The position numbers were made by a program, and so were the translations under genes. Source: Escherichia coli (lineage in GTDB: Bacteria; Pseudomonadota; Gammaproteobacteria; Enterobacterales; Enterobacteriaceae). Taken from it: DNA of 64,000 bases. The DNA is taken from assembly GCF_003991155.1 (NCBI RefSeq), contig NZ_CP031293.1, one strand, 5' to 3'. Positions 48,093-48,170 of the stretch are shown in pieces. The notes under the pieces are model-generated. The model saw only the letters and a program-made list of their open reading frames with translations. It had not been told where the DNA came from and searched no databases. The first letter of the stretch is position 1. The number at the start of each line of letters is the position of its first letter.

Positions 48093-48170
48093 AGAGATAC
48101 GGCTAATAACCGTATCTCTTGACAGAGTGAGCATATGCACATAAATTAATCACACGGTTGATAGCCGTAT
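48093..48170 (+). promoter_or_regulatory. Putative promoter and operator of the toxin-antitoxin operon: -35 TTGACA (48119-48124), -10 TAAATT (48142-48147, 17-bp spacer), flanked by two ACGG-N7-CCGTAT palindromic sites
   Basis: Read directly: AGAGATACGG-CTAATAA-CCGTATCTCT (48093-48119, perfect 10-bp arms) abuts the -35. A second site ACGG-TTGATAG-CCGTAT (48154-48170) lies just downstream of the -10. SD AAAGAGG sits 6 nt before the antitoxin ATG. Confidence 0.55.

Follow-up and report, generated by a model that had tools for sequence, protein, structure and literature searches.

Paired palindromes at the itaRT promoter of Escherichia coli as candidate operators of the ItaR–ItaT toxin–antitoxin complex

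Introduction

Among the modules that pair a GNAT toxin with a DUF1778 antitoxin, KacAT of Klebsiella pneumoniae has been crystallized on its DNA as a KacT–KacA2–KacA2–KacT assembly, bound to a 27-bp palindromic duplex of sequence 5'-AAATGTACGGTTATTAACCGTACATGA-3' (PDB 5ZGN; Qian et al. 2019, PMC6698736). The base contacts reported for KacA are R12–G5, D10–C8, R8–G9, R8'–G20 (the partner of C8) and D10'–C18 (the partner of G10) (PMC6698736); from this list it follows that the β-sheet of one antitoxin dimer reads G-T-A-C-G-G and that the second dimer reads the symmetric half-site. DNA binding by DUF1778 antitoxins, which a previous reading of the present locus from sequence alone (the sequence-only reading) had named as a trait of the family, is correct according to the same work (PMC6698736). 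For the related AtaRT system, a model has been proposed in which the toxin sets the DNA-binding domains of the antitoxin in a binding-competent orientation (review PMC8138530).

The itaRT operon has been studied at the level of its upstream region. A 172-bp fragment, with coordinates −183 to −11, drives a galK transcript ~40-fold over a promoterless control; ItaR together with ItaT, wild type or catalytically dead, returns galK to near background, and ItaR alone has no effect on the reporter (Wilcox et al. 2018, PMC6125619). That article makes no mention of a palindrome, inverted repeat, operator or EMSA. In the searchable literature we found no EMSA, footprint or mapped transcription start for the itaRT sites described below, and their motif was found nowhere beyond the KacAT paper. 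Here we describe base-pair-level operator candidates for ItaR–ItaT, where the original study stopped at the 172-bp fragment, in a 64-kb stretch of E. coli DNA that is referred to throughout as the window.

Results

Identification of the itaRT module

The antitoxin gene occupies positions 48224–48535 on the plus strand and encodes a 103-aa ribbon-helix-helix protein of the DUF1778/TacA family (Pfam PF08681, TacA1/DUF1778, E = 1.3e-17), related by HMMER to both KacA (5ZGN, E = 3.5e-11) and AtaR (6AJM). It is followed on the same strand, with an overlap of 17 nt, by a gene for a 180-aa toxin with GNAT Pfam domains (48519–49061). The toxin aligned over its full length, at ~96% identity (E = 4.5e-114), with PDB 7BYY, which is the structure of E. 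coli ItaT (PMC7367177). Because a PF08681 antitoxin is here combined with an overlapping toxin ~96% identical to ItaT, the locus was identified as the itaRT operon of Wilcox et al. 2018 (PMC6125619), with ItaR presumed to be the DNA-binding subunit and ItaT presumed to be the co-repressor.

A ribosome-binding site, GAGG, was read from the sequence at 48215–48218 (plus strand), 5 nt before the ATG at 48224, and AGAGGT precedes the start in most orthologues. This ATG, which is used by RefSeq in other strains, is likely the true start of itaR. An alternative antitoxin reading frame of 125 aa, annotated as such in E. coli IAI39 (P0001), opens at a TTG at 48158, inside the second of the two palindromes described below, and is probably an over-extended call.

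Of 5426 complete E. coli genomes, 1371 have the module, which lies in a variable island of ~2.3 kb flanked by cyoE and yajR. The terminator of cyoE is a hairpin, ATAAAAAAGGTGC-tacg-GCACCTTTTTTAT, at 48052–48081, and 11 nt separate it from the first palindrome. In K-12-like genomes lacking itaRT, homology to the window stops right after this terminator, and therefore the palindromes and the promoter are part of the module and not of the core genome. The same island carries a 205-aa open reading frame on the minus strand (49404–50021), absent together with itaRT from K-12-like genomes; judged from its translation, it could possibly encode a Sel1/TPR-like repeat protein with an N-terminal hydrophobic stretch. 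A separate case was seen in E. coli O157:H7 TR01, in which a deletion of 2183 bp (window 48117–50299) has removed the promoter, itaRT and the neighbouring gene, leaving an orphan copy of site 1 (L031:1501–1535, equivalent to window 48082–48116) and a junction with 2 bp of TC microhomology. This 35-nt remnant was considered as a common scar of module loss and ruled out: the deletion is rare, being confined to 2 genomes, and ordinary itaRT-less genomes do not have the site.

Palindromes and promoter in the window

Upstream of itaR, a perfect 27-bp palindrome (site 1, promoter-distal) extends from 48093 to 48119 and consists of AGAGATACGG (48093–48102), 7 nt (ctaataa) and CCGTATCTCT (48110–48119); its core, ATACGGCTAATAACCGTAT, lies at 48097–48115 with the dyad at 48106. 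A promoter scan of 47900–48400 returned a single promoter-like match, the σ70-like TTGACA-17-TAAATT, which agrees with the consensus at 10 of 12 positions. Its −35 hexamer, TTGACA, is at 48119–48124 (plus strand), such that the last T of the palindrome is also the first base of the hexamer; the −10 hexamer, TAAATT, is at 48142–48147 (plus strand), 17 nt further on. A second palindrome (site 2, promoter-proximal) begins 6 nt past the −10 as ACGGTTGATAGCCGTAT (48154–48170), or, with the outer positions included, as ACACGGTTGATAGCCGTAT (48152–48170), with its dyad at 48161, 55 bp from that of site 1. The sequence-only reading had likewise placed a palindrome with 10-bp arms against TTGACA and another ACGG-N7-CCGTAT site past the −10, and both were recovered exactly where it had put them. 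When aligned, the half-sites read ATACGG-ctaataa-CCGTAT for site 1 and CACGG-ttgatag-CCGTAT for site 2, and for comparison with relatives the two were taken as ATACGGctaataaCCGTAT and CACGGttgatagCCGTAT. Both have (G)TACGG-type half-sites spaced 7 bp apart around an AT-rich centre, site 2 with one mismatch (C48153). Like operators of the KacA/AtaR type, they overlap the promoter, site 1 ending on the −35 and site 2 lying just past the predicted −10. Transcription is predicted to start at about A48154, in which case site 2 would span the start together with the initial ~17 nt of leader sequence.

The fragment of Wilcox et al. can be placed on this map. Numbered from the start codon, −183 to −11 would place it at 48041–48213, with both sites inside. 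This numbering was preferred because an origin near 48154 would truncate the −10, which could not be reconciled with the activity observed.

Statistical analysis of the motif showed two matches to ACGG-N7-CCGT in the whole 64-kb window, both at the itaRT promoter, with 0.92 expected by chance; two copies within 100 bp of one another occurred in 2 of 2000 windows simulated with a first-order Markov model. Perfect inverted repeats whose arms measure ≥10 bp were found at 7 distinct places in the window and are mostly terminator-like. A repeat with 10-bp arms is on its own unremarkable in this window, because terminators supply several; what is remarkable is the motif repeated around a promoter, not the 10-bp arms. 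Other such repeats, at 9110–9133, 18858–18883, 30486–30510 and 53985–54025, are probably terminators or REP-like elements.

Allelic variation within E. coli

The C at 48153, which makes the left half of site 2 read CACGG, is particular to the window allele: TACGG was present in all three of the other E. coli alleles fetched, the majority allele among them, and in nearly all orthologues. In the majority allele a T at 48153 restores TACGG in site 2, and a G at 48116 breaks the outer arm of site 1; the perfect 10-bp arms of site 1 are allele-specific. Another allele has a G at 48109, giving a perfect AGCCGTA in site 1, and all other differences between alleles lie in the spacer of the promoter or in the leader. 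The window allele is a minority one, shared at ≥99% identity by 86 of 1369 genomes. Each allele differed at 4–8 positions in 201 nt, which is too sparse for a test of constraint.

Conservation across ItaR orthologues

For comparison beyond E. coli, a profile of ItaR relatives (62–86% identity) was used to collect 21 loci totalling 111 kb, on contigs of one genome per species from about a dozen genera, including Pseudocitrobacter, Phytobacter, Buttiauxella, Rahnella, Chimaeribacter, Trabulsiella, Kluyvera, Edaphovirga, Serratia, Superficieibacter and Xenorhabdus. Exact TACGG-N7-CCGTA occurred 34 times in these loci, in every case no more than ~310 nt upstream of the antitoxin gene, a region in which chance would give ~0.1 matches, and with no match elsewhere in the 111 kb. 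This association of site and antitoxin gene is thus kept across genomic contexts, and it holds on plasmids too.

A common layout was shared by 13 loci (12 and the window): a site, 4–5 nt, TTGACN, 17 nt, TAnnnT, 5–10 nt and a second site. TTGAC lies at a constant offset from site 1 in 13/13 of these dual-site loci, and the 17-nt length of the spacer is likewise exact in all of them, its sequence being unconserved. The post-−10 site is kept in 12 loci, that of locus L003 being degenerate. Each position of TACGG and of CCGTA carried 2 bits of information; the inner T and A also scored high and the flanks ~0, so that the conserved unit is a 17–19-bp core, RTACGGCT-N3-AGCCGTAY in the consensus of the ItaR clade, rather than the 10-bp arms.

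The distance between the two dyads was 55–60 bp, and 57 bp in 7/12 loci. One explanation would be that sites 1 and 2 work as a single cooperative unit, in which a higher-order ItaR–ItaT assembly or a toxin bridge wraps or loops the promoter through a link controlled by the toxin:antitoxin ratio, so that conditional cooperativity would act from palindrome to palindrome, as the sequence-only reading had implied; the retention of two sites at so narrow a spacing across genera, together with the ratio-dependent regulation of KacAT and AtaRT, can be cited in its favour. We nevertheless consider such a unit improbable, in that the intervening promoter, with its fixed geometry, wholly explains the spacing, which amounts to ~5.2 to 5.7 helical turns, with the relative face of the sites not conserved. 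In the relatives of solved structure, moreover, one heterohexamer occupies each palindrome and the ratio acts on that site alone, and lineages with a single site exist; looping or bridging between the two sites is therefore regarded as unlikely. Helical phasing had itself been tried as evidence of looping and was dropped, the phasing not being conserved across loci.

In the eight Xenorhabdus loci only the −35-side site is present, and in Superficieibacter (L021) only the post-−10 site. Depending on the lineage, then, either position can occur by itself, and both sites may not be needed in the itaRT of the window. The Superficieibacter arrangement would suit an alternative in which site 2 is by itself the working operator and site 1 is redundant, a weak auxiliary or an evolutionary leftover, and KacA, AtaR and two plasmid homologues also have a single site right past the −10. 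Conservation points the other way: TACGG/CCGTA was perfect in 17/17 copies of site 1 vs 12/14 of site 2, Xenorhabdus has retained site 1 only, and in the window it is site 1, not site 2, that matches the consensus. On balance, sole operation of site 2 seems quite improbable, and operator function for both palindromes is the reading that we prefer.

Several features of individual lineages were recorded alongside. The lone operator of Xenorhabdus (L011, L014–L020) adjoins a TTGCnT-17-TATYYT promoter and is followed by a leader of ~110 nt conserved among species. Over 200 nt separate the dual operator and promoter from the antitoxin gene in Edaphovirga, Rahnella rivi and a Serratia species (L002:2289–2500, L004:2292–2500 and L010:2302–2500). 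The long leader contains an open reading frame of 17–21 codons (MKFTANVFNLNRFRCIF, MRNQSKALNFSRFIKLS and MSLKKIQNLNNFKGIPFTGKR), preceded by a GGAG ribosome-binding site of its own; it might encode a leader peptide or represent a third small gene.

Site 1 was also seen to sit in longer palindromes with lineage-specific outer arms (window 48093–48119; L006, L007, L013, L002, L012 and L011). At positions 2–6 outside the core, 31/65 flanking pairs were complementary at site 1 (p ~6e-5), and at site 2 the count was 20/65, with no such effect. Base-specific contacts do not account for the flank symmetry of site 1. Possible causes are backbone or bending needs of the hexamer, co-evolution with the N-terminal arm of ItaR, which is variable, or correction of quasi-palindromes by template switching.

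The same complementarity in lineage-specific sequence could be taken to mean that the palindromes are hairpin elements, such as a terminator or an RNA stability stem; in addition, site 2 would lie within the transcript and forms a hairpin at the 5' end of the predicted leader, and a weak terminator-like pattern is present on the minus strand at site 2. Yet cyoE has its own canonical terminator at 48052–48081, site 1 has no T-run after it on the plus strand, and no plus-strand intrinsic terminator was called at either site. The predicted leader folded no better than shuffled sequences (z = −1.2), and comparison with Rfam gave sub-threshold noise only, with no family near threshold. An RNA-element reading had been entertained separately and was dropped, as the leader is not unusually structured. 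The remaining variant would have the palindromes recognized by an unrelated host regulator; it is very unlikely, since the motif tracks the antitoxin gene (ItaR, KacA and AtaR alike) through unrelated chromosomal and plasmid contexts; it also equals the DNA of the KacA co-crystal. Taken together, a hairpin or host-regulator origin is considered extremely improbable, and we continue with the palindromes as operators of the module itself.

Base-reading residues and operators of relatives

In the HMMER alignment, R19, E21 and K23 of ItaR, within the β-strand K16-NARVELKTS-25, correspond to the base-reading residues R8, D10 and R12 of KacA, with a conservative change at 2 of the 3 positions. Among 40 family members, K23 never varies, and R19 and E21 hardly do. 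We assumed that the specificity of ItaR is that of KacA, despite the E-for-D and K-for-R replacements among the reading residues.

The native kacAT locus was reached by a plasmid tblastn search. Upstream of kacA, TTGAGT-17-TATATT is followed by aaATGTACGGaaaataaCCGTACAT, and the native site, ATGTACGGaaaataaCCGTACAT, lies just past TATATT. In E. coli O157, the sole palindrome upstream of ataR is ATGTACGGTgacatACCGTACAT, 25 nt before the ATG; no good σ70 consensus promoter was called upstream of it. On the basis of PMC6698736, and of its being the only palindrome present, it was taken to be the crystallized operator. Each of two plasmid homologues carries one site, GTACGG-N7-CCGTAC, immediately downstream of a −10.

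Discussion

Proposed mechanism of repression

Both palindromes very probably serve as operators of the itaRT operon, at which ItaR–ItaT would bind for autorepression. The sequence-only reading had proposed an autoregulatory operator of the antitoxin and toxin, and its proposal gains support from the identity of the locus as itaRT, the half-site match to the KacA–KacT and ataRT operators, the conserved reading residues, the cross-genus footprints of both sites and hexamers, and the published repression of the reporter (PMC6125619).

From the homologous KacAT and AtaRT, one ItaT–ItaR2–ItaR2–ItaT heterohexamer is expected on each palindrome. Its two ribbon-helix-helix dimers would insert their β-sheets into successive major grooves and read the RTACGG half-sites across the AT-rich centre. 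With the 27-bp crystal duplex as footprint, the complex on site 1 would cover 48093–48119, which is exactly the extended palindrome of the window allele, and would reach the −35; the complex on site 2 would cover ~48148–48174, from just past the −10, over the predicted start at A48154 and into the leader. The two sites would be occupied independently, without looping. Either complex would exclude RNA polymerase, and both together would give tight autorepression.

ItaT is proposed to be an obligatory co-repressor because it would hold two ItaR dimers in DNA-binding geometry, and the requirement for toxin in the ItaRT reporter fits the orientation model of AtaRT. As regards the toxin:antitoxin ratio, the reporter data are consistent with the half of conditional cooperativity in which toxin enhances binding at a low ratio; release at a high ratio has been demonstrated only for KacAT and AtaRT, and de-repression of itaRT by excess ItaT is plausible by analogy. 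The sequence-only reading had further taken two palindromes bracketing a promoter to be a hallmark of conditional cooperativity. This part did not find support in that form, as in KacAT and AtaRT a single T–A2–A2–T heterohexamer binds each palindrome and the ratio effect is exerted on a single site.

Operator sharing and possible cross-talk

The core TACGG-N7-CCGTA is common to the operators of non-cognate modules, namely those of ItaR, AtaR, KacA and IncF-type plasmid homologues. The operator word RTACGG-N7-CCGTAY is thereby common to a wide span of GNAT/DUF1778 modules, which makes operator prediction in the family straightforward; it also raises the question of cross-repression between co-resident modules. 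Because the core is shared, non-cognate GNAT/DUF1778 complexes might bind each other's promoters and create transcriptional cross-talk between chromosomal and plasmid modules, a suggestion that we advance tentatively and hold to be somewhat doubtful. Both itaRT and ataRT were found in ~396 of 5426 complete E. coli genomes, a number close to the ~411 expected if the two were independent; the genome identical to the window over this region has itaRT only, without ataRT. Three features of the ItaR clade could insulate the module from cross-talk or tune it: a second operator located at the −35, conservation of the inner CT/AG, and site 1 flanks that are symmetric but specific to each lineage.

Comparison with known systems

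RelB/relO, FitAB and Arc of P22 belong to protein families unrelated to those of itaRT, with unrelated DNA sequences, and resemble it in mechanism only. The shared elements are paired ribbon-helix-helix dimers in adjacent major grooves, a palindrome overlapping the promoter and a toxin as co-repressor (reviewed in PMC8138530). The general understanding of type II toxin–antitoxin autoregulation is unchanged by the present results.

The likeness to kacAT is much closer. The antitoxins are of the same family, the TACGG-N7-CCGTA half-sites, their spacing and the AT-rich centre are the same, and the arginine that reads the CG step is kept (R8 of KacA, R19 of ItaR). The kacAT operator overlaps the transcription start just past the −10, as site 2 is predicted to do, and there too the toxin strengthens repression. 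The outer base differs, kacA having G where the ItaR clade mostly has A, and the reading residues D10 and R12 give way to E21 and K23; a further difference is the inner CT/AG (TACGGCT-N3-AGCCGTA), a conserved feature of the ItaR clade. KacA alone binds weakly, whereas ItaR alone gave zero repression in vivo. Binding, structure and ratio dependence have been demonstrated for KacAT, and the itaRT sites are candidates by sequence. In number of palindromes, kacAT has one and itaRT two, the additional itaRT site being the one that adjoins the −35.

The ataRT operon of E. coli O157:H7 (Jurenas et al. 2019, Yashiro et al. 2019) likewise encodes an antitoxin of the same family, and its palindrome, ATGTACGGT-gacat-ACCGTACAT, has the same core. 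As in the ItaRT reporter result, the toxin–antitoxin complex is the only effective repressor. It is unlike itaRT in having a single site and in the tRNA target of its toxin. Operators of this kind are thus already known for GNAT/DUF1778 modules; what is new is the itaRT sites themselves, apparently unmapped before, and the sole real difference is their two-site layout, a conserved promoter arrangement that departs from the single-operator paradigms of kacAT and ataRT.
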